NCBI GenBank assembly: GCA_029265715.1
Contig: JAJUGZ010000003.1
Span: 10,322-74,321, forward strand
Origin: Bacteroidota bacterium
GTDB taxonomy: Bacteria > Bacteroidota > Bacteroidia > Bacteroidales > Prolixibacteraceae
DNA length: 64,000 bases
Direction: 5' to 3'
Under the pieces are notes generated by a model that did no database searches, was not told the DNA's origin, and worked only from the letters and a program-made list of their open reading frames with translations. Each line of letters starts with the position of its first letter. Within the stretch, counting starts at the first letter, position 1. A program made the translations under genes and the position numbers. Shown piece after piece: positions 54,889 to 64,000 of the stretch.

Positions 54889-56226
54889 ATGGCAAAAAAG
54901 TTAGTCATATTAGGTGCGGCTGAAAGCGGGGTTGGCGCGGCTATTCTAGGAGTCAAGCTCGGCTATCAGGTCTTTGTTTCAGACAAAGGTACAATTCGCG
55001 AAAAATACCGCCGCGAGCTGGATGAACGTTCAATCTTGTTTGAAGAAGGGCAACATTCGGAGGAGGTTATCCTGGCGGCCGATCTGGTTGTGAAGAGCCC
55101 GGGTATTCCCGAAAAGGCCCCGATAATTGTTAAGCTGAAAGAAAAAGGGATTCCGGTAATTTCCGAAATTGAGTTCGCCGGAAGGCATACATCGGCAAAA
55201 AAAATCTGCATTACAGGTAGTAACGGCAAGACTACCACAACTTTGCTAACTTACGATATCCTGAAACGGGCTGGCCTTAATGTGGGTCTGGCCGGAAATG
55301 TCGGGCAAAGTCTGGCCTGGCAGGTTGCCGAAAAAGACTATGATTATTATGTGATTGAGCTGAGCAGTTTTCAGCTCGACGGAATGATCGAGTTTAAAGC
55401 AGATGTTGCCATTTTGTTGAATATTACTCCTGATCATCTTGATCGCTACGAATATAAGATGCAAAACTACATCGACTCAAAGTTCCGGATTGCGCAGAAC
55501 CAGGGGCCGAACGATGTTTTTATCTACTGTGCCGACGATCCGGTGGTGGGCTACGAAATGACCATGCGTCAGTTACCCGCCCGCTGTGTGCCTTTTGGCC
55601 TGGGGAAACCTCCGGTATGCGGGGCCGGCATTATCAATAACGAAATCATCATTAACTGGGAACAAAATCCATTTACCATGTCAATATTCGATCTTTCTTT
55701 ACAGGGTAAGCACAATACCTACAATTCGATGGCTGCCGGAATTGCCGGTAAAGTAGTTGAAATCAGGAATGAAAAGATCAGGGAAAGCCTGTCGGGTTTT
55801 GAAGGTGTTGAACACCGTCTCGAACGTTTTTTACGGGTTCATGGAATCGAGTTTATAAACGACTCGAAAGCAACCAACATCAACTCAACCTGGTATGCAC
55901 TGGAAAGTATGACCATGCCGACCGTGTGGATTGTCGGGGGCGTTGATAAAGGAAATGATTATTCGGAGCTGATGGATTTGGTCAAGGCAAAGGTGAAAGC
56001 CATTGTTTGCCTGGGCGTTGACAATACCAAGATTGTTGAAGCGTTTAAAAATACGGGAATCGATATTGTTGAAACACGCTCGATGGCCGATGCTGTTCGT
56101 TCGGCCTATTATTTGGCAAAAAACGGTGATGCTGTGCTGCTTTCGCCGGCATGTGCCAGCTTCGATTTGTTCGAGAACTACGAAGACCGTGGCCGTCAGT
56201 TTAAAAATGCAGTAAGAGATTTGTAA
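54889..56226 (+). CDS. murD: UDP-MurNAc-L-Ala--D-Glu ligase
   Basis: VKSPGIP, GSNGKTTT, ELSSFQL, NDSKATN, SPACASFD. Confidence 0.97.
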   Translation: MAKKLVILGAAESGVGAAILGVKLGYQVFVSDKGTIREKYRRELDERSILFEEGQHSEEVILAADLVVKSPGIPEKAPIIVKLKEKGIPVISEIEFAGRHTSAKKICITGSNGKTTTTLLTYDILKRAGLNVGLAGNVGQSLAWQVAEKDYDYYVIELSSFQLDGMIEFKADVAILLNITPDHLDRYEYKMQNYIDSKFRIAQNQGPNDVFIYCADDPVVGYEMTMRQLPARCVPFGLGKPPVCGAGIINNEIIINWEQNPFTMSIFDLSLQGKHNTYNSMAAGIAGKVVEIRNEKIRESLSGFEGVEHRLERFLRVHGIEFINDSKATNINSTWYALESMTMPTVWIVGGVDKGNDYSELMDLVKAKVKAIVCLGVDNTKIVEAFKNTGIDIVETRSMADAVRSAYYLAKNGDAVLLSPACASFDLFENYEDRGRQFKNAVRDL

Positions 56227-56227
56227 G

Positions 56228-57436
56228 ATGAGGTTTTCGTTGGGAAATATATTCAAGGGCGACCGTTCGCTGTGGATCGTGATGGTTCTGCTGTCGCTGA
56301 TCTCGATGTTGATCGTGTACAGCGCAACCGGGAAGCTGGCCTTCCGCGAAGCAGGAGGCGATACCAGCCATTACCTGGTACGCCAGTCAATTTTTATCCT
56401 GACTGGGCTAACGATCATGGTAATTCTGGTCAATTTCATTCCTGTCAAATTATATTTCCTGATTTCGCCGGCCTTGATTGGAATTACCCTTTTTACACTC
56501 GTAGCGGCGTATGTTCAGTTTAAGATACAGCACAAGCCAACGCCCCGTTCGCTCGATGTGGGCTTTTTTAACTTTCAACCTGCCGACCTGGCCAAAATAT
56601 CGCTGGTGATGTATGCGGCGCGGATACTTTCAAAATATCAGAAAACCAAAGAGGACCTGTGGTTTGCATTCAAACGCGTAACCATTGTTTCCGGAGTTAT
56701 CTGTGCGATTATCTTCATGGGGAACGTTTCTACCTCGGTATTGATTTTTGCATCGATGATGGTTTTGATGATGATTGCCCGTATCCCGATGAAATATCTG
56801 TCCGGGCTGATTGGCGCCGGAATCTTGTTTGTTACCCTGGTTTATTTTACAGCCAACATTATGCCGAAAGGGTTTGGCCGTGTACACACATTTAAAGAAC
56901 GTATCGACGATTTTTTATACGGAGATAAAGAAGCCGAGAAAGGAACCACTCAGGCTGATTTTGCGAAACTTGCCATTTTCGAAGGCGGAACATTTGGGAA
57001 AGGTCCCGGAAACAGTGAGGTGAGCAACTATATGGAAGCCGGGTACAACGACTTTATTTTTGCCATCATTGTCGAAGAATATGGCCTGGTTGGCGGTACC
57101 ATCCTGGTGTTTTTATATCTGGTGTTACTGTATCGCGGCGTTGTTATTGTGCGCCGGTCCGAGCGAACGTTTCCGGCTTTTTTGGTTGCAGGTCTGGTGA
57201 TTATGGTGGTTTTTCAGGCCGTCATAAACATGTCGGTATCGGCGGGGGTCATCCCTGTTACTGGCCAGCCATTGCCCTGGGTAAGTATGGGAGGAACCTC
57301 CATGTTGTTTACAGCCGTAGGATTTGGCGCTATTTTGTCGGTCAGTTATTACAATAAGAAAATAAAAGCTTCGCAGGATAGCGGGCAATCCGAAGTGGCG
57401 GTTGCCGAAGTTCCGGTTGAAGATCAGGATTTATAG
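56228..57436 (+). CDS. ftsW: SEDS peptidoglycan polymerase
   Basis: FQPADLAK, FGKGPG, DFIFAIIVEEYG, GQPLPWVSMGG. Confidence 0.93.
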   Translation: MRFSLGNIFKGDRSLWIVMVLLSLISMLIVYSATGKLAFREAGGDTSHYLVRQSIFILTGLTIMVILVNFIPVKLYFLISPALIGITLFTLVAAYVQFKIQHKPTPRSLDVGFFNFQPADLAKISLVMYAARILSKYQKTKEDLWFAFKRVTIVSGVICAIIFMGNVSTSVLIFASMMVLMMIARIPMKYLSGLIGAGILFVTLVYFTANIMPKGFGRVHTFKERIDDFLYGDKEAEKGTTQADFAKLAIFEGGTFGKGPGNSEVSNYMEAGYNDFIFAIIVEEYGLVGGTILVFLYLVLLYRGVVIVRRSERTFPAFLVAGLVIMVVFQAVINMSVSAGVIPVTGQPLPWVSMGGTSMLFTAVGFGAILSVSYYNKKIKASQDSGQSEVAVAEVPVEDQDL

Positions 57437-57446
57437 AACGAGAACG

Positions 57447-58550
57447 ATGGAAAAATTAAAAGTCATAGTCAGTGGAGGAGGAACAGGCGGGCATATTTTC
57501 CCGGCCATATCCATTGCCAACGAGATTCGCGACCGGTTTCCGGAATCGGAAATTTTGTTTGTCGGGGCGTTAGGAAAGATGGAGATGGAACGCGTTCCGG
57601 CAGCCGGCTATCGCATTGAGGGCTTACCGGTGATGGGGTTTCCGAGGAAACCCTCGCTGAAGATGTTCACGTTCTTTGTAAAATTATATAAGAGCATGCA
57701 GAAAGCCCGCCGTATTATTCGGGAGTTTCAGCCCGATGTGGCCATTGGCGTGGGAGGTTTTGCAAGCGGCCCGATTTTGAAAGCTGCGGTTCGAAAAGGC
57801 GTGCCGGCTGTGCTTCAGGAACAAAACTCGTATGCGGGCCTGACCAATAAAATTCTGGCATCTAAAGTGCGAAAGATCTGTGTGGCGTATCCCAATATGG
57901 ATCGTTATTTCCCGGCCGAAAAATTGGTTGTAACCGGGAACCCAATCCGGAAAAATTTGCTTGAAAAGGTGGCAAACCGTTCGGAAGCCTTATCTTATTT
58001 CGAATTGGAATCAGGTAAACCGGTCGTTCTGATTGTGGGCGGAAGTCTGGGCGCCCGCACCCTGAATGAAAGCGTGATGGCGAATTTAGATGTAATCCGG
58101 AAATCAGGAGTGCAGGTTGTGTGGCAAACCGGTAGTTATTATTATCGGGAAATGCTTGACCGGTTAAAAAATCAGGCGCCGGAAAATCTGAAAGTGACGG
58201 AGTTCCTTTCGCGGATGGATTTGGCGTATGCGGCGGCCGACGTGGTCGTTTCACGAGCCGGGGCCGGAACAATTTCTGAGCTTTGCTTGCTGGGCAAACC
58301 GTCGGTTTTGGTTCCCTCGCCCAACGTGGCTGAAGATCATCAGACCAAAAATGCCATGGCGCTGGTCGAGAACAATGCGGCTCTGATGGTTCGCGACAAC
58401 GAAGCCAAAGAAAAATTGTTCGACGAAACGCTTGCCTTGCTGGCCGACCCCAAACGTTTAGACGAGCTGGCCGCAAACAGCCTGAAGCTGGCTAAGCCAA
58501 AGGCTGCTGAAGAAATTGTTGATGTTGTAATGTCGGTGATTGAAAAATAA
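57447..58550 (+). CDS. murG: lipid II GlcNAc transferase
   Basis: GGGTGGHIFP, EQNS, GNPIR, GGSLGA, SRAGA, EDHQTKNA; start ATG 57447. Confidence 0.97.
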   Translation: MEKLKVIVSGGGTGGHIFPAISIANEIRDRFPESEILFVGALGKMEMERVPAAGYRIEGLPVMGFPRKPSLKMFTFFVKLYKSMQKARRIIREFQPDVAIGVGGFASGPILKAAVRKGVPAVLQEQNSYAGLTNKILASKVRKICVAYPNMDRYFPAEKLVVTGNPIRKNLLEKVANRSEALSYFELESGKPVVLIVGGSLGARTLNESVMANLDVIRKSGVQVVWQTGSYYYREMLDRLKNQAPENLKVTEFLSRMDLAYAAADVVVSRAGAGTISELCLLGKPSVLVPSPNVAEDHQTKNAMALVENNAALMVRDNEAKEKLFDETLALLADPKRLDELAANSLKLAKPKAAEEIVDVVMSVIEK

Positions 58551-58551
58551 T

Positions 58552-59940
58552 ATGCTGGATTTTAATACTATACAAAACGTTTATTTTCTTGGTATCGGCG
58601 GAATCGGGATGAGCGCCCTGGCTCGCTTTTTTAACCATTCTGGTAAAAAGGTGGCCGGTTACGACCGCACTTGTACCGATCTGACCAATCAATTGGTTTC
58701 TGAAGGGATTGCGGTGCATTATACCGACGATCCGGCGTTGATCCCGTCCGGATGGGACCCAGGAAATACATTGGTTGTTTTTACCCCGGCTGTTCCTGCC
58801 GACCATCAGGAATTGAATGTGTTAAAAAACTCCGGGTTTAGTATCCATAAACGGGCCGAGGTGTTGGGCCTGATTTGCCGGGCGCACAAAACCATTGCCA
58901 TTGCCGGTACCCACGGAAAAACATCGGTTACCACCATGACGGCACACCTGCTGAAATCGTCGACTGTTGATTGCAGTGCGTTTTTGGGCGGGATTTCGAA
59001 AAATTACGGCACCAACTTGCTGCTGAGCGAAACCAACTCTGACTGGGTTGTTGCCGAAGCCGACGAGTTCGACCGTTCGTTTCTGCACTTGCACCCACAA
59101 CAGGCTGTTATTACGGCCATGGATGCCGATCATCTGGATATTTACGGCACACATGAATCGGTAATCGAAAGTTTTAATCAGTTTGCATCGCAAGTTGCTC
59201 CGGATGGATTGCTGTTGATTAAAAATGGGTTGCCAATTAACCCGGAAATCCTTCAGTCGCATCGCTGCCTGACCTATTCATTGCACGGGCCGGCTGATTT
59301 TTATGCCGTTCATATTCAGCTTATTGAAGGAGCTTATCAGTTCGACTTGGTAACCCCGGATGGAATCATTGAAAAATTAGTGCTGAATTATCCGGGGCTG
59401 ATGAATATTGAAAATTCGATCGCTGCCTCGGCTATGGCACTGAATGCCGGAATGACCCCGGACGAGCTCCGGAAAGGATTGCCGGAGTATGGTGGCGTAA
59501 AGCGCCGCTTCGATCGTCACCTGCAAACCCCCGAATTCGTACTGATCGACGATTATGCCCATCATCCGGAGGAACTGAAAGCAACGATTCTTTCGGTGCG
59601 CGATTTATACCCGGGGCGCAAAATAACCGGTGTTTTTCAGCCGCATTTGTACACCCGGACGCGCGACTTTGCCGATGGTTTTGCGGCCAGTCTTGATCTG
59701 GTCGATCAGGTAGTTTTGCTCGATATTTATCCGGCACGCGAGTTGCCAATCGAAGGTGTTACGTCTGAAGTTATTTTTAACAAAATACAGAACCCGAATA
59801 AAATCTTGTGCAACAAAACCGAATTGGTCGGACTCAGCGCAACATTCGATCAGGGGGTTATCCTGATGATGGGTGCCGGTGATATTGAGTTATTGGTTGG
59901 ACCGGTAAAACAAAAATTGATGGAACGGACACATGTTTAG
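58552..59940 (+). CDS. murC: UDP-MurNAc--L-Ala ligase
   Basis: GIGGIGMSALA, GTHGKT, EADEFD, DDYAHHP, FQPHLYTRT. Confidence 0.97.
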   Translation: MLDFNTIQNVYFLGIGGIGMSALARFFNHSGKKVAGYDRTCTDLTNQLVSEGIAVHYTDDPALIPSGWDPGNTLVVFTPAVPADHQELNVLKNSGFSIHKRAEVLGLICRAHKTIAIAGTHGKTSVTTMTAHLLKSSTVDCSAFLGGISKNYGTNLLLSETNSDWVVAEADEFDRSFLHLHPQQAVITAMDADHLDIYGTHESVIESFNQFASQVAPDGLLLIKNGLPINPEILQSHRCLTYSLHGPADFYAVHIQLIEGAYQFDLVTPDGIIEKLVLNYPGLMNIENSIAASAMALNAGMTPDELRKGLPEYGGVKRRFDRHLQTPEFVLIDDYAHHPEELKATILSVRDLYPGRKITGVFQPHLYTRTRDFADGFAASLDLVDQVVLLDIYPARELPIEGVTSEVIFNKIQNPNKILCNKTELVGLSATFDQGVILMMGAGDIELLVGPVKQKLMERTHV

Positions 59941-60682
59941 AAAGATACTGATCATATTAGGCTGGATTTTGTTCGTCGCCTTTGTTGGCGGTTCGATAAC
60001 CTACTGCTGGCTCGAGATGAAAGACGTGAAGTGCCAGGCGGTATCGGTTCATATTGATCCGTCGTCGCCAAGGTTTATTGATGAAGCCGATCTGGCCCAG
60101 GTGATTGAGAAAGAAAATAACGGACTGATCGGTAAACGGATGGGATCTCTGAACCTGTATAAGCTGGAGAATAATTTAAAAAAGCTTACAACAATTAAAG
60201 ATGTTGAGGTTTTCAAGCGCATTAACAGTAAATCGTTGCGGTTTGCCGGGAGACTGGTGGTTAATGTTAGCGAGCGGACCCCAATCATGCGGGTTAAAAC
60301 CGATTCAGACGATTATTATGTCGATGCCGAAGGTGTTAAAATCCCGGTTTCAACCAAATATGCAGCCAATGTAATGGTGGTGAACGGGGCGGTGACCGAC
60401 GAGCTGATAAAAGAAAAACTGATCCCGCTGGTATTGTATATCGATAAAACCGAATTCTGGAAAGCTCAGGTTGAGCAAATATATGTAAAGGGAAACGGAG
60501 AACTGATTATGGTCCCTCAGGTTGGCGATCATATCATCGAATTTGGCTCGGCCGACGATTACAAGCGTAAGTTTCGGAATTTAAAAGAAGTGTATTTAAA
60601 AGGCTTCAACCATTCGGGTTGGGACCAATATAAAATTGTGAGTGTAAAGTATTACAATCAGGTTGTTTGTACAAAAAGATAA
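59933..60682 (+). CDS. ftsQ: cell division protein FtsQ/DivIB
   Basis: Single TM, POTRA-like domain, ERTPIMRV; position murC-ftsQ-ftsA. Confidence 0.88.
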   Translation: MFRKILIILGWILFVAFVGGSITYCWLEMKDVKCQAVSVHIDPSSPRFIDEADLAQVIEKENNGLIGKRMGSLNLYKLENNLKKLTTIKDVEVFKRINSKSLRFAGRLVVNVSERTPIMRVKTDSDDYYVDAEGVKIPVSTKYAANVMVVNGAVTDELIKEKLIPLVLYIDKTEFWKAQVEQIYVKGNGELIMVPQVGDHIIEFGSADDYKRKFRNLKEVYLKGFNHSGWDQYKIVSVKYYNQVVCTKR

Positions 60683-60686
60683 ATGT

Positions 60687-61988
60687 ATGGACAGGAGCGA
60701 ACAAATTTTTGCAGCCGTTGATATCGGTACAACAAAAGTAATAGCAATTGCCGGTAAACGGAATGATGAAGGGAAAATAGAAATTATCGGATTTGGTCAC
60801 AGCAAGTCGCAGGGTGTTAAACGGGGAATCGTTTTTAACATCGACGAGACACATGCCGCCATCGAGGAGGCAGTCAAGAAGGCAGAAGAATCGTTTGGTG
60901 GCATCATCGACGAGGTATATGTCAACATTGCCGGACAACACCTGAAAACACTCACTGCGCGCGGCCAGAAATACATCGGGCGCGACAACGAGTTTACCGA
61001 AGAGCATGTGGCTGAGCTTGAAGGGCAGGCCCGTCAAATTCCACTCGATCCGGAAATGTCGATTTACCATGTCAATCCGCAAATGTTCATTATCGATAAC
61101 GAGTCGGGCATCCAGAACCCGGTCGGAACGGCAGGCGAAAAACTTGAAGCTGTATATAAAGTTCATGTTGCTCCGGATTTGTATCAACGGAATATTCAGA
61201 AAAGCCTTGATAAAGCCGGGATCAAAATGCAGCGTGCCGTTCTCGACCCGATCGCCTCATCCGAAGTTGTTTTGACCGAAGATGAGAAAGAGGCTGGCGT
61301 GGTGCTGATTGATATCGGAGGTGGAACAACCAAAATGTCGATTTTCCGCGATGGCGTTTTGTGTTACACGGCGGTCATTCCGTTTGGTGGTAATGTAATC
61401 ACTCACGACATCAAGGAAGGCTGCTCCATCTTGTTACGACAGGCCGAGTCGCTTAAAGTACAGTTCGGGCAGGCGATGGGCGATTTTGCCCCGGCCGAGA
61501 AGGTGGTTACTATTCCGGGGCTCTCCGGATGGGAACCCAAGGAAATTTCGTTTAAAAACCTGGCGTTTGTTATTCAGGCCAGGATGGATGAGATTATTGA
61601 AGCCTGGTATTTTCATCTGGAGAAATCAGGCTACCTCGATAAGGTTGGCGCCGGAATTGTGTTGACCGGCGGAACGGCCTTGCTGCCCAATTTGAGGCAG
61701 TTGATCAAATACCGTACCGGTTTGGATGTGCGTCACGGGAAGCCGATTATGCACTTCTTTAAAGCCTGGAAAGAACTTGAAGACCCGCGTTTTTCAACCG
61801 CGCTGGGTTTATTGCTGATCGCGGCGAATGATGCCGATGAGGAAATAAAATCGAAACTGGCTAATCGCAGAAACCGGGGGAAGAAACCAAAAAACTCTCA
61901 GCCAGGTTTTTTCAGTTCCATCAAGAATCAGGTAGCGAAACAGGTCACACTTTTCTTCGAAGAAGATCAGGATACGGAAATGAGTTAG
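60687..61988 (+). CDS. ftsA: cell division protein FtsA
   Basis: DIGTTK, IDIGGGTT, PFGGNVIT, LTGG; C-terminal amphipathic helix; start ATG 60687. Confidence 0.96.
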   Translation: MDRSEQIFAAVDIGTTKVIAIAGKRNDEGKIEIIGFGHSKSQGVKRGIVFNIDETHAAIEEAVKKAEESFGGIIDEVYVNIAGQHLKTLTARGQKYIGRDNEFTEEHVAELEGQARQIPLDPEMSIYHVNPQMFIIDNESGIQNPVGTAGEKLEAVYKVHVAPDLYQRNIQKSLDKAGIKMQRAVLDPIASSEVVLTEDEKEAGVVLIDIGGGTTKMSIFRDGVLCYTAVIPFGGNVITHDIKEGCSILLRQAESLKVQFGQAMGDFAPAEKVVTIPGLSGWEPKEISFKNLAFVIQARMDEIIEAWYFHLEKSGYLDKVGAGIVLTGGTALLPNLRQLIKYRTGLDVRHGKPIMHFFKAWKELEDPRFSTALGLLLIAANDADEEIKSKLANRRNRGKKPKNSQPGFFSSIKNQVAKQVTLFFEEDQDTEMS

Positions 61989-62014
61989 AAAAACACTTTA
62001 ATCTCGTCTGCTGT

Positions 62015-63292
62015 ATGAACGACGAAATTTTCAACTTTGGACTCGAACAGGCCGGCTCTTCCATCATTAAAGTAATTGGCGTGGGAGGCGGTGGATGTAA
62101 TGCAGTCAATCACATGTACGAGGAAGGCATCGCCGGTGTTGATTTTATTCTTTGCAACACCGATGCTCAAGCTCTTCGAAACAGCCCGGTGCCGGTTAAA
62201 ATTCAACTGGGGGTTACCCTTACCGGAGGCCGAGGCGCCGGGAACAGGCCGGAGCATGGGGAACTGGCTGCCATCGAAAACCTCGAAGATATCCGCGCGT
62301 TGCTGGATGGCACTACCAAGATGGTTTTCATCACGGCCGGAATGGGCGGAGGTACCGGTACTGGCGCGGCGCCCGTGATTTCGAAGCTGGCAAAGGAACT
62401 CGATATCCTGACAATTGCCGTCGTTACAGTGCCCGCGCCAGCTGAAGGTCGGCGCAGGTTCCATCAGGCGCTCGACGGAGTTACCAAGTTGAAAGAGCAT
62501 GTCGATAGCTTGTTGGTCATCAGCAACGAAAAATTACACAAAATATACGGCAACCTGCCGGCATCACAGGCTTTTAAAAAAGCCGACGATATTTTGACTA
62601 CAGCCGTAAAAGGGGTTGCCGAGATTATCACGGTGCATGGTAATATTAATATCGACTTTGCCGATGTGAGCACGGTAATGTCGGGAAGCGAAGTGTTCCT
62701 GATGGGAACCGGCTATGCATCCGGTGAAGGGCGGGCCATGAAGGCTGTGAAAGAAGCTTTGCGCTCACCGTTGCTCGATAGCAACGATATTTATGGCACT
62801 AAAGATATCCTGCTCAATATTATTTCCGGCGAAGAAGAAATCACCATGGGCGAAATCGGAGAAATTATCGATTACCTTCAGGATAAAGCCGGACAGGATG
62901 CTAATATTATCTGGGGAAATGGAGTAGATAAAAAACTGGGTCCAAACATCAGTGTTACTATTATTGCCACCGGTTTCGAAACCAATCCCAATGAACTATT
63001 TCAGGAAAACAGAAAAGAAGTTATCGTGCTTGATCCCGACTTTACCGACATCGGGCCTGAAATAAACCTGGAAGAACCCGAAAAAGCAGAATCACCCTAT
63101 AGTCTGTTCCCCGAAGAGGAAACAACTTCTTTTGAGGTAAAAACGGATAAACGTGCTAAACGAAAGAAGGTAAAAGAACCTGTTTCGGGAAAGCCATCAG
63201 ATGGCGGAAATGTGGATAGCTGGTTTGCACGGCAGTTTTCACGTTTTTTTGAGGACACCGACGAACCCATGTCGGATGGTAAAGATCAATGA
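62015..63292 (+). CDS. ftsZ: FtsZ paralog 1 with a non-canonical, FtsA-like C-terminus
   Basis: GVGGGGCNA, GAG, GMGGGTGTG, EGRRR, NIDFAD; tail ends WFARQFSRFFEDTDEPMSDGKDQ. Confidence 0.93.
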   Translation: MNDEIFNFGLEQAGSSIIKVIGVGGGGCNAVNHMYEEGIAGVDFILCNTDAQALRNSPVPVKIQLGVTLTGGRGAGNRPEHGELAAIENLEDIRALLDGTTKMVFITAGMGGGTGTGAAPVISKLAKELDILTIAVVTVPAPAEGRRRFHQALDGVTKLKEHVDSLLVISNEKLHKIYGNLPASQAFKKADDILTTAVKGVAEIITVHGNINIDFADVSTVMSGSEVFLMGTGYASGEGRAMKAVKEALRSPLLDSNDIYGTKDILLNIISGEEEITMGEIGEIIDYLQDKAGQDANIIWGNGVDKKLGPNISVTIIATGFETNPNELFQENRKEVIVLDPDFTDIGPEINLEEPEKAESPYSLFPEEETTSFEVKTDKRAKRKKVKEPVSGKPSDGGNVDSWFARQFSRFFEDTDEPMSDGKDQ

Positions 63293-63317
63293 AGTAAAAC
63301 CCTGAAAAAGTAAGATC

Positions 63318-64000
63318 ATGACAAATGAAATAATCAATTTCGAGTTACCGGAAAAATCCGGATCGATCATTAAAGTTATTGGAGTTGGCGGCGGTGGAGG
63401 GAACGCCGTAAACCACATGTTTCACCAAGGTATCCGCGATGTCGATTTTATGGTATGCAACACCGATTCGCAGGCGCTGGCAAACAGCCCGGTACCCTAT
63501 AAAGTGCAGCTGGGTTCGTCGCTAACCGAGGGCCGCGGGGCTGGCAATAAGCCTGAAGTTGGTCGTGAAGCAGCCATTGAAAACATCGAAGATGTGAAGA
63601 AAATCCTGAAAGATAATACCAAGATGGTATTCATTACGGCCGGAATGGGCGGAGGGACCGGAACCGGAGGCGCCCCGGTTATCGCACAGGCAGCCCGCGA
63701 ACTGGGCATCTTAACGGTTGGGATTGTAACAATTCCGTTCCGCAATGAAGGACGCCGTCGTGTAAAGCAGGCCATCGAAGGTATTGCGGCCATGGAGGAA
63801 CATGTTGACTCGCTACTGGTGATCAATAACGAACGGATACGCGAAATGTACGGGGATTTTAAGATTTCGGATGCATTTGCCAAAGCAGATAATATCCTCA
63901 CAACGGCGGCCAAAGGAATTGCTGAAATTATAACGGTCCCGGGGTATATCAATGTTGACTTTGCCGATGTGGAGACGGTAATGCGCGATAGTGGCGTGGC
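63318..64000 (+). CDS. ftsZ: FtsZ paralog 2 (canonical-looking), runs off the window end; not in the ORF track
   Basis: Manual translation MTNEIINFELPEKSGSIIKVIGVGGGGGNAVNHM...GMGGGTGTGG...IPFRNEGRRR...GYINVDFADV. Confidence 0.96.
   Translation, partial: MTNEIINFELPEKSGSIIKVIGVGGGGGNAVNHMFHQGIRDVDFMVCNTDSQALANSPVPYKVQLGSSLTEGRGAGNKPEVGREAAIENIEDVKKILKDNTKMVFITAGMGGGTGTGGAPVIAQAARELGILTVGIVTIPFRNEGRRRVKQAIEGIAAMEEHVDSLLVINNERIREMYGDFKISDAFAKADNILTTAAKGIAEIITVPGYINVDFADVETVMRDSGV

Follow-up and report, generated by a model that had tools for sequence, protein, structure and literature searches.

The ftsA-ftsZ1-ftsZ2 locus

The stretch analysed here, called the window, comprises 64,000 nucleotides (nt) of a Prolixibacteraceae genome, and its last 9 kb are filled by the end of a division and cell wall (dcw) gene cluster in the order murD-ftsW-murG-murC-ftsQ-ftsA-ftsZ1-ftsZ2. 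The cluster contains two consecutive ftsZ genes, and the first of them, ftsZ1 (62015..63292), encodes an FtsZ paralogue of 425 amino acids (aa) with an FtsA-like C-terminal tail. A first-pass annotation of the window had drawn attention to this tail, and we confirmed the observation. Its interpretation of the protein, as an FtsZ that may bind the membrane by itself, is supported as far as sequence analysis reaches.

The three genes at the end of the cluster, and all protein segments described below, are encoded on the plus strand. The ftsA gene (60684..61988) encodes 434 aa from the ATG at 60684, with an alternative upstream TTG at 60663 that is likewise open, and its product matches TIGR01174 with 324 bits as well as the Pfam FtsA and SHS2_FTSA domains. 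FtsZ1 scores 369 bits against TIGR00065, above the cut-off of 295, and 158 and 83 bits against PF00091 (Tubulin) and PF12327 (FtsZ_C), respectively. Its gene lies downstream of ftsA at the end of the dcw cluster, in agreement with its assignment to FtsZ. The canonical FtsZ, FtsZ2, starts at 63318 and runs beyond 64000; its first 227 aa score 291 bits against TIGR00065 as a partial protein, and because the window end cuts the gene, its tail is known only through relatives. Spacers of 26 nt and 25 nt separate ftsZ1 from ftsA and ftsZ2, respectively, and no terminator-like site was found in either. Further upstream lie murD (54889-56226), ftsW (56228-57436), murG (to 58550), murC (58540-59940) and ftsQ (59933-60682).

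The GTPase core and FtsZ_C domain of FtsZ1 (62051..62998, residues 13-328) retain an intact G-box and T7 loop. All the GTPase motifs pointed out in the first-pass annotation are present (GVGGGGCNA, GMGGGTGTG, AEGRRR and NINIDFAD). GMGGGTGTG and NINIDFAD, the latter including N212, D214 and D217, are invariant in an alignment of 42 orthologs, as is the start methionine. The AlphaFold2 model of the core shows the secondary-structure pattern of FtsZ, with high confidence in the N-terminal GTPase domain and lower confidence in the C-terminal subdomain. With its GTP-binding and T7-loop motifs intact, ftsZ1 appears to encode a functional FtsZ paralogue.

A protein search using FtsZ1 returned 119 full-length relatives of about 70% identity (P0002-P0120; P and L numbers are our handles for proteins and loci), the named ones coming from the Prolixibacteraceae genera Gaoshiqia, Aquipluma and Mangrovibacterium. 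The Marinifilaceae (Marinifilum, Ancylomarina and Paralabilibaculum) possess an FtsZ1-type family of their own (P0121-P0195). The FtsZ1-type set used below therefore contains 195 proteins, 120 of the Prolixibacteraceae type and 75 of the Marinifilaceae type. We also sampled 80 Bacteroidota ftsA-ftsZ loci, one genome per species, and fetched 11 further loci by way of FtsZ1 orthologs. Two ftsZ genes were present in four of the 80 sampled loci (Maribellus, Prolixibacter, Tangfeifania and a Marinifilaceae metagenome-assembled genome), and the other 76 had a single ftsZ. The Tangfeifania locus starts inside ftsZ1, and the remaining three read ftsA-ftsZ1-ftsZ2. Counting the window, this order was seen in 15 of the 15 loci with both ftsA and ftsZ1 (window, L001, L003, L004 and L081-L091), all from Prolixibacteraceae and Marinifilaceae of the order Marinilabiliales, and yqeY comes next after ftsZ2 in L081-L091 wherever the downstream region is annotated. 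The loci with this order include the complete chromosomes of Aquipluma (AP018694), Gaoshiqia (CP186334) and Marinifilum fragile. In addition, an independent 11.5-kb contig from an anaerobic-digester metagenome is 99.5% identical to the window over 60600-64000, and the tandem arrangement is therefore not an assembly artefact.

Three short contigs match this stretch with complete or near-complete identity; the first lies within ftsZ1, the second within ftsZ2, and the third crosses the junction of the two genes. The junction contig, 164 nt long and identical to 63288-63425 (from the ftsZ1 stop codon to the ftsZ2 start), comes from a run labelled as a riverine metatranscriptome (X12), and the runs of the other two were merely guessed to be RNA. 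The junction contig is consistent with co-transcription of ftsZ1 and ftsZ2, although DNA carry-over is possible. An exact look-up of the window FtsZ1 protein matched no contig.

Single-copy Bacteroidota FtsZ proteins are closer to FtsZ2 than to FtsZ1. In the Prolixibacteraceae, FtsZ1 is 57-65% identical to other Bacteroidota FtsZ and FtsZ2 58-78%, and the Marinifilaceae FtsZ1 core equals FtsZ2 in conservation. The extra copy is ftsZ1. The gene is specific to the two Marinilabiliales families Prolixibacteraceae and Marinifilaceae. An exhaustive profile search of 1.84 billion representative proteins yielded one further FtsZ1-type protein (P0241) among the best 150 matches; the clustering of the representatives at 50% identity hides the remaining FtsZ1-type proteins. 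Several unusual FtsZ architectures were also noticed. P0329 (705 aa), from the same search, carries a ParA/MinD-like P-loop ATPase (KGGVGRT) N-terminal to a Bacteroidota-like FtsZ core that lacks the FtsA-binding peptide. P0242 (840 aa) is a single polypeptide with a complete FtsZ core on either side of a Pro-rich linker and ends in IPEFLRRRARR. P0254 (751 aa) and P0263 (979 aa) are Bacteroidota FtsZ with acidic N-terminal extensions of 220-440 aa.

The C-terminal tail of FtsZ1

Behind the core, FtsZ1 continues with a disordered linker of 72 aa (62999..63214, residues 329-400) that has no secondary structure in the AlphaFold2 model and a predicted local distance difference test (pLDDT) score below 50. 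This is followed by a modelled helix spanning residues 401-413. The linker contains a basic patch (63140-63175, K376-K387, TDKRAKRKKVKEPV), and the helix (63215..63253, D401-E413, DSWFARQFSRFFE) is an FtsA-like candidate membrane-targeting helix with its amphipathic part at W403-F412. W403 starts at nt 63221, where the tail had been said to begin. The acidic end (63251..63289, E413-Q425, EDTDEPMSDGKDQ) fits the pattern F-[DE]-x-x-D-x-x-M of FtsA tails. The protein had been read as terminating in PMS, which is not correct, as DGKDQ follows before the stop codon at 63290-63292. The FtsA tail (61866..61985) is built in the same order of a basic patch (RRNRGKKPKN; RRNRGKKPKNSQP), an amphipathic helix (GFFSSIKNQVAKQVTLFF) and an acidic end (EEDQDTEMS), and the protein ends as previously read, in VAKQVTLFFEEDQDTEMS. 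The charges of patch, helix and acidic end are +5, +2 and -5 in FtsZ1 and +6, +2 and -5 in FtsA, so that both tails have the preceding basic patch that had been ascribed to them. The tail segment of FtsA acts as the membrane anchor in every species tested, as summarised in PMC12583498 (citing Pichoff and Lutkenhaus 2005). On the strength of its location, and of homology with FtsA tails that have been characterised, the tail of the window FtsA is presumed to be a membrane-targeting sequence.

The FtsZ1 tail is conserved in all orthologs examined (120 and 75 proteins in the two families); a lack of conservation, which had been named as grounds for giving up the idea, was not seen. All 119 Prolixibacteraceae-type relatives end in N-[VLT]-D-x-W-F-x-R-Q-F-x-[RK]-F-F-[ED]-D-x-D, and W403, F404, F408 and F412 are invariant in the Prolixibacteraceae ortholog alignment. 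The Marinifilaceae proteins end in [IL]-D-N-W-F-K-D-K-F-T-Q-I-F-D-N-x-D-T-S-M or in K-K-S-G-W-[FL]-K-D-T-L-G-S-L-F-D-T-E-D-T-S-M. Among 75 unique tails from both families, the hydrophobic positions (W, F/L, F/L, F/L/I and F at 0, +1, +5, +8 and +9) are invariant in character, whereas the polar face varies by family (R-Q versus D/N-T/K, and R/K versus S/Q). The five hydrophobic positions fall within one 180-degree arc of the helix. A constant hydrophobic face combined with a variable polar face is what lipid-facing helices usually show, and this may apply to FtsZ1. The hydrophobic moment of FARQFSRFFED, one of the checks suggested earlier, is 0.77 on the HeliQuest scale, and the anchor of E. 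coli FtsA reaches 0.84. As a discriminator, this value is supportive without being decisive.

The tail has taken the place of the segment by which FtsZ normally meets FtsA. All single-copy Bacteroidota FtsZ and all FtsZ2 proteins carry the motif E-x-[EVI]-P-A-[YF]-x-R-[RK] about 45-50 aa before the C-terminus. Motifs of the E-x-x-PAY-x-R type are the classic FtsA-binding peptide of FtsZ. Most canonical Bacteroidota FtsZ end in NNSFLHDNVD, in accordance with the HDNVD end that the first-pass annotation had given for this phylum. In the Prolixibacteraceae, 12 of 12 FtsZ2 proteins have ENIPAYRRK or a close variant and end in N[SP][YF]LHD[NK][VA]D, and the canonical proteins are 45-60 aa longer than FtsZ1. 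A motif search for a PAY-x-R or IPAFLR-type peptide found none in the window FtsZ1, as had been noted, and detected it in one of the 195 FtsZ1-type proteins compared with 45 of 45 canonical proteins; the single match sits inside the tail helix and is spurious, leaving the peptide absent from 194. The C-terminal regions of FtsZ1 and FtsZ2 have no alignable similarity (hhalign P 0.32). The C-terminus of FtsZ1 therefore does not look like a diverged FtsZ C-terminus, and both the FtsA-binding peptide and the Bacteroidota-specific end appear to be gone. The GNVD just before the helix had been proposed to mark a fusion point. However, only the three residues NVD (N399-V400-D401) agree (post hoc p ~0.01) and the region upstream cannot be aligned with any canonical remnant, which leaves this proposal unsupported.

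Two features of the canonical proteins were observed alongside. Most canonical Bacteroidota FtsZ have a second conserved segment, S-R-[FY]-[ST]-L followed by the terminal N-N-S-[FY]-L-H-D-N-V-D, about 45 aa after PAY-x-R-R (L002-L080, e.g. L005 4989-6470; FtsZ2 of L081-L089; P0196-P0240). The Marinifilaceae FtsZ2 proteins (L004 6306-7595, L090 5468-6742 and L091 5360-6583) have kept PA[FY]KRK and lost the NSFLHDNVD end; they end in V[RIH]F[TD]L[DG] followed by two further residues and, at 407-430 aa, are shorter than FtsZ1.

The similarity between FtsZ1 and FtsA tails had been put forward from the ungapped block FARQFSRFFED/VAKQVTLFFEE of the window pair. The five identities reported for it (A, Q, F, F and E) are correct, but only three of the five pairs called conservative are BLOSUM62-positive (R/K, S/T and D/E), as the two F/V pairs share hydrophobicity alone. 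The window pair by itself is at chance level, and it is the family profiles that make the significance visible. A profile-profile comparison (hhalign) of the FtsZ1 tails of both families with Bacteroidia FtsA tails gave a probability of 94.8% and a P value of 5.5e-8. Against the FtsA tails of Bacteroidales and Marinifilaceae, the Marinifilaceae FtsZ1 tails scored 44 (97%, P 7e-11) and the Prolixibacteraceae FtsZ1 tails, with the window sequence first, scored 26 (85%, P 6e-6), compared with 7-8 ± 2 for 150 column shuffles (maxima 16 and 13) and 7-8 for reversed profiles. The match persists when the FtsA tails are restricted to six single-ftsZ genomes (P 1e-9 for Marinifilaceae and 2e-5 for Prolixibacteraceae). 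The controls, of similar composition and amphipathicity, gave P values of 0.02-0.8; these were the FtsA tails of Flavobacteriia and Cytophagia, the canonical peptide region and the canonical FtsZ end. The resemblance is thus specific for the FtsA tails of the same order over other amphipathic tails, a point on which the first-pass annotation had staked its proposal. The FtsZ1 tails of the two families also match each other (93%, P 4e-8 to 2e-7).

The relationship can be followed in single sequences of the Marinifilaceae. When 6649 sequences were searched by phmmer using 22-aa tails of Marinifilaceae FtsA, the top-ranking matches outside FtsA were without exception FtsZ1 tails (E 0.05-1), ahead of all unrelated reading frames. 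The Ancylomarina FtsZ1, for example, ends in GWFKDTLGSLFDTEDTSM, compared with GITAFLGSLFDTHDVDM for the Marinifilum FtsA. Marinifilaceae FtsA proteins end in KKKRGITAFLGSLFDTHDVDM or KKKGLKRFFGALFDTQDVEM, and those of single-ftsZ Bacteroidales in TDIFDEDDAEM or ASIFDERDTEM. An ungapped profile comparison of Prolixibacteraceae FtsZ1 with their own FtsA tails gave a score of 16.1 (column-shuffle p ~0.001). A hidden Markov model of the Prolixibacteraceae FtsZ1 tail, searched against the local reading frames, picked up FtsA proteins only at noise level (E 3-24). Judging from the profile comparisons, the FtsZ1 tail module of about 25-45 aa, comprising basic patch, helix and acidic end, is homologous to the Bacteroidales-type FtsA tail.

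Proposed origin and function of FtsZ1

The simplest origin of ftsZ1 would be a single tandem duplication whose two breakpoints lay in the ftsA 3' end and in the 3' portion of ftsZ, although this mechanism is an inference. Such a duplication would produce ftsA-[ftsZ core::ftsA tail]-ftsZ in a single step. The duplication-fusion model, which the first-pass annotation had phrased as unequal crossing-over, predicts the gene order, and this order matches that of all 15 loci with ftsA and ftsZ1. Because the FtsA-type tail occurs in Bacteroidales genomes without FtsZ1, FtsA represents the donor type and not the recipient. In a neighbour-joining tree, bootstrap values were 100% for the Prolixibacteraceae FtsZ1, 89% for the Marinifilaceae FtsZ1 and 96-100% for the two FtsZ2 clades. 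All four clades fall inside the Bacteroidia, with relations between clades at 0-6% bootstrap, and the Prolixibacteraceae branch in roughly the same pattern in FtsZ1 as in FtsZ2. The FtsZ1/FtsZ2 pair is an independent, lineage-specific duplication inside the class Bacteroidia. Two other ideas on the tail were rejected. FtsA and FtsZ1 tails from the same genome were no more alike than cross-genome pairs (permutation p 0.28), which gives no sign of co-variation or gene conversion still acting between them. Descent from a diverged FtsA-binding peptide was not a better origin either, as WF-x-R-Q placed on AY-x-R-K scores 7.5-8.0 (column-shuffle p 0.06-0.26) and hhalign against the canonical peptide gives P 0.17-0.7.

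Direct membrane tethering is probably the function of FtsZ1, with FtsZ2 tethered via FtsA. Filaments of FtsZ1, or co-filaments of FtsZ1 and FtsZ2, would themselves contact the inner membrane by way of the helix face W-F-x-x-x-F-x-x-F-F, aided by the upstream basic patch, and FtsZ2 would stay tethered through FtsA. Membrane binding, co-assembly with FtsZ2 and independence of FtsA are properties that we infer from the protein sequences. Taken together with the proposed origin, this leads to the most far-reaching interpretation, to which we give a probability of about 0.45: a single tandem duplication across the ftsA 3' end and most of ftsZ, in an ancestor within the Marinilabiliales, grafted the FtsA anchor onto an FtsZ core, and the resulting self-tethering FtsZ1 works beside, and probably co-polymerises with, the FtsA-tethered FtsZ.

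Several observations weigh against the proposed origin and tethering of FtsZ1. The AlphaFold2 confidence is low for the helix at 401-413, and among the C-terminal windows of ordinary proteins a hydrophobic moment of 0.77 ranks only at the 92nd percentile (87th-93rd for the tail). The acidic end leaves the helix region without net positive charge; moreover, this conserved acidic motif is superfluous for a simple lipid anchor and unaccounted for by membrane binding. No assay of a Bacteroidota FtsA tail was found in the literature searched. On the side of the tail similarity, a phmmer query with the window FtsA tail did not place its own FtsZ1 among the best 40 matches, the best FtsZ1-type matches had a non-significant E value of about 6 in the 6649 sequences, and the ungapped profile score of the Prolixibacteraceae came almost wholly from the four columns FF[ED][ED]. 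On the side of the origin, the 3' ends of ftsA and ftsZ1 and the two spacers share no DNA similarity above codon-shuffle nulls in the window, L083, L090 and L091. The duplication junction is therefore invisible, and the event is old on account of this absent similarity. Finally, the two families' FtsZ1 cores do not group together in the tree (5% bootstrap), so that a single origin of FtsZ1 is suggested by the shared tail and gene order only.

The acidic end deserves attention of its own. The F-[DE]-x-x-D-x-x-M end is common to FtsA and FtsZ1 tails, often at the very C-terminus, and was seen in the window (61959-61985 and 63251-63289) and in L004, L090, L091, L005, L006 and L009. It may mark a common partner or a regulatory element. 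In Ancylomarina euxinus, FtsA (L090 2644-3894) ends in KKRGLKRFFETIFDN, without the last six or so acidic residues of other Marinifilaceae FtsA, and FtsZ1 of the same genome retains the full LGSLFDTEDTSM end.

The FtsZ1 tail might instead be a protein-docking peptide, either a replacement for the FtsA-binding peptide or a segment that docks on another divisome protein or on a partner common to FtsA and FtsZ1. In favour of this, an acidic motif for which membrane binding gives no account is conserved beside the helix in both tails, and R406 and Q407 of the polar face are at least 90% conserved within the Prolixibacteraceae. In addition, WF-x-R-Q can be superposed on the AY-x-R-K of the canonical peptide, and FtsZ C-terminal peptides reportedly form short amphipathic helices on FtsA in the Thermotoga maritima FtsA-FtsZ peptide structure. 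However, the likeness of the tail to the canonical peptide is at the chance level given above. Furthermore, the two families share five invariant aromatic or aliphatic positions and differ in the polar face, as is usual for lipid-binding helices, and the homologous segment of FtsA is a membrane anchor wherever it has been tested. We consider a docking role unlikely on balance.

Alternatively, FtsZ1 could be membrane-associated and yet not be a second subunit of the Z-ring, acting instead in the control of cell shape or length, or regulating FtsZ2 by capping or competition, in the manner of other specialised FtsZ-like paralogues. The Prolixibacteraceae FtsZ1 clade is long-stemmed and more diverged than FtsZ2, and FtsA and a complete canonical FtsZ2 are kept in every genome, implying that FtsZ1 is an addition and not a replacement. 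Such a separate role seems improbable, however, considering that ftsZ1 lies inside the dcw cluster within 25-26 nt of its neighbours and with no terminator-like site between them, that the GTP-binding and T7-loop residues for polymerisation are invariant, and that the Marinifilaceae FtsZ1 core is conserved as strongly as FtsZ2.

We also give little credence to convergence or chance, in which an amphipathic end would have evolved from the linker or from a diverged FtsA-binding peptide: the window pair is not significant alone, same-genome tails are no more alike than cross-genome tails, DNA similarity is lacking and the aligned segments are short (20-34 columns), but the profile-profile P values of 5.5e-8 to 7e-11 come with composition-preserving nulls far below the observed scores, the equally amphipathic and acidic FtsA tails of Flavobacteriia and Cytophagia fail to match, the match reaches the very C-terminus, including the terminal methionine in the Marinifilaceae, and the gene order is exactly as duplication-fusion predicts.

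Comparison with known FtsZ systems

One of the closest parallels to the FtsZ1 tail is the membrane-targeting sequence of FtsA from E. coli, B. subtilis and T. maritima, which is likewise a terminal amphipathic helix after a flexible basic segment. In contrast to the E. coli-type FtsA anchor, the tail here sits on FtsZ, its helix has about 10-13 residues instead of about 17, and a conserved acidic end that is missing from the E. coli FtsA sequence follows the helix. The plan of FtsZ1, consisting of an FtsZ core, a linker and an amphipathic helix in place of the FtsA-binding peptide, is the same as that of the engineered FtsZ in which the C-terminal peptide was replaced by the MinD helix (Osawa and Erickson, as described in bioRxiv 10.1101/2023.08.29.555414). 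FtsZ1 differs in being natural, in being conserved in two families, in co-existing with FtsA and a canonical FtsZ, and in having FtsA rather than MinD as the apparent helix donor.

Natural self-anchoring FtsZs are already known from Mycoplasma, Odinarchaeota and chloroplasts. FtsZ of Mycoplasma genitalium is a documented example of direct membrane binding (bioRxiv 10.1101/2023.08.29.555414). The group 1E FtsZ of Mycoplasma has a terminal amphipathic helix, and binding to liposomes and to E. coli membranes was shown (same preprint). Like FtsZ1 it lacks a canonical FtsA-binding peptide, but it belongs to wall-less organisms with minimal genomes and a single FtsZ, and its helix has no reported link to FtsA; we set it beside FtsZ1 by description. 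FtsZ1 of Odinarchaeota and chloroplast FtsZ1 also contact the membrane directly (PMC12583498; PMC11285052). In the known self-anchoring FtsZs, the purified protein binds liposomes and loses this ability when the helix is deleted (10.1101/2023.08.29.555414; PMC12583498). Without an adaptor-binding tail and with an intrinsic terminal amphipathic element, the FtsZ1 described here fits this class by sequence.

Dual FtsZ systems with divided tethering are likewise known in archaea and plastids. In Odinarchaeota, Haloferax and chloroplasts, the adaptor-binding tail is present in one paralogue and missing from the other, as here. The second paralogue is membrane-binding in Odinarchaeota and Arabidopsis, through an N-terminal helix in the Odinarchaeota FtsZ1 and through an amphiphilic beta-strand motif in the Arabidopsis FtsZ1. 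In contrast to these pairs, ftsZ1 and ftsZ2 of the present lineage stand in tandem in the dcw cluster, and the helix is C-terminal and apparently FtsA-derived. The two proteins are not orthologous to the archaeal or plastid FtsZ1 and FtsZ2 clades, as both branch inside the Bacteroidia in the neighbour-joining tree. With canonical Bacteroidota FtsZ, FtsZ1 shares the GTPase core, the FtsZ_C fold and the cluster, at the identity of 57-65% given above.

The new features are a tandem pair of ftsZ genes that is conserved within the dcw cluster of a walled Gram-negative lineage, the absence of the FtsA-binding peptide from one paralogue, and an anchor apparently copied from FtsA. The literature searched contained no match for FtsZ with Prolixibacteraceae or with Marinifilum. 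According to a 2023 survey, the few bacteria with two ftsZ genes carry the extra copy outside the dcw cluster (PMC9871819), a statement that the ftsA-ftsZ1-ftsZ2 order corrects. If the most far-reaching interpretation is true, walled Gram-negative bacteria would here have their first described division system with two FtsZ proteins, and the move of a membrane anchor from one cytoskeletal protein to its partner would be documented. The lineage would also provide a clear example of module transfer between interacting cytoskeletal proteins. In Bacteroidia FtsA, the acidic motif common to both tails points in addition to a feature as yet unstudied.

The tethering of the Z-ring, and the roles that FtsA has beyond it, are long-standing questions that have mostly been probed with artificial fusions of FtsZ to a membrane-targeting sequence. 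The lineage described here appears to have built such a construct by itself and to have kept it through the radiation of two families, beside an intact FtsA and a canonical FtsZ. It would offer a natural system in which to study the contribution of a directly anchored FtsZ beside one anchored through FtsA, and a bacterial counterpart to the division of labour between FtsZ1 and FtsZ2 in archaea and plastids.

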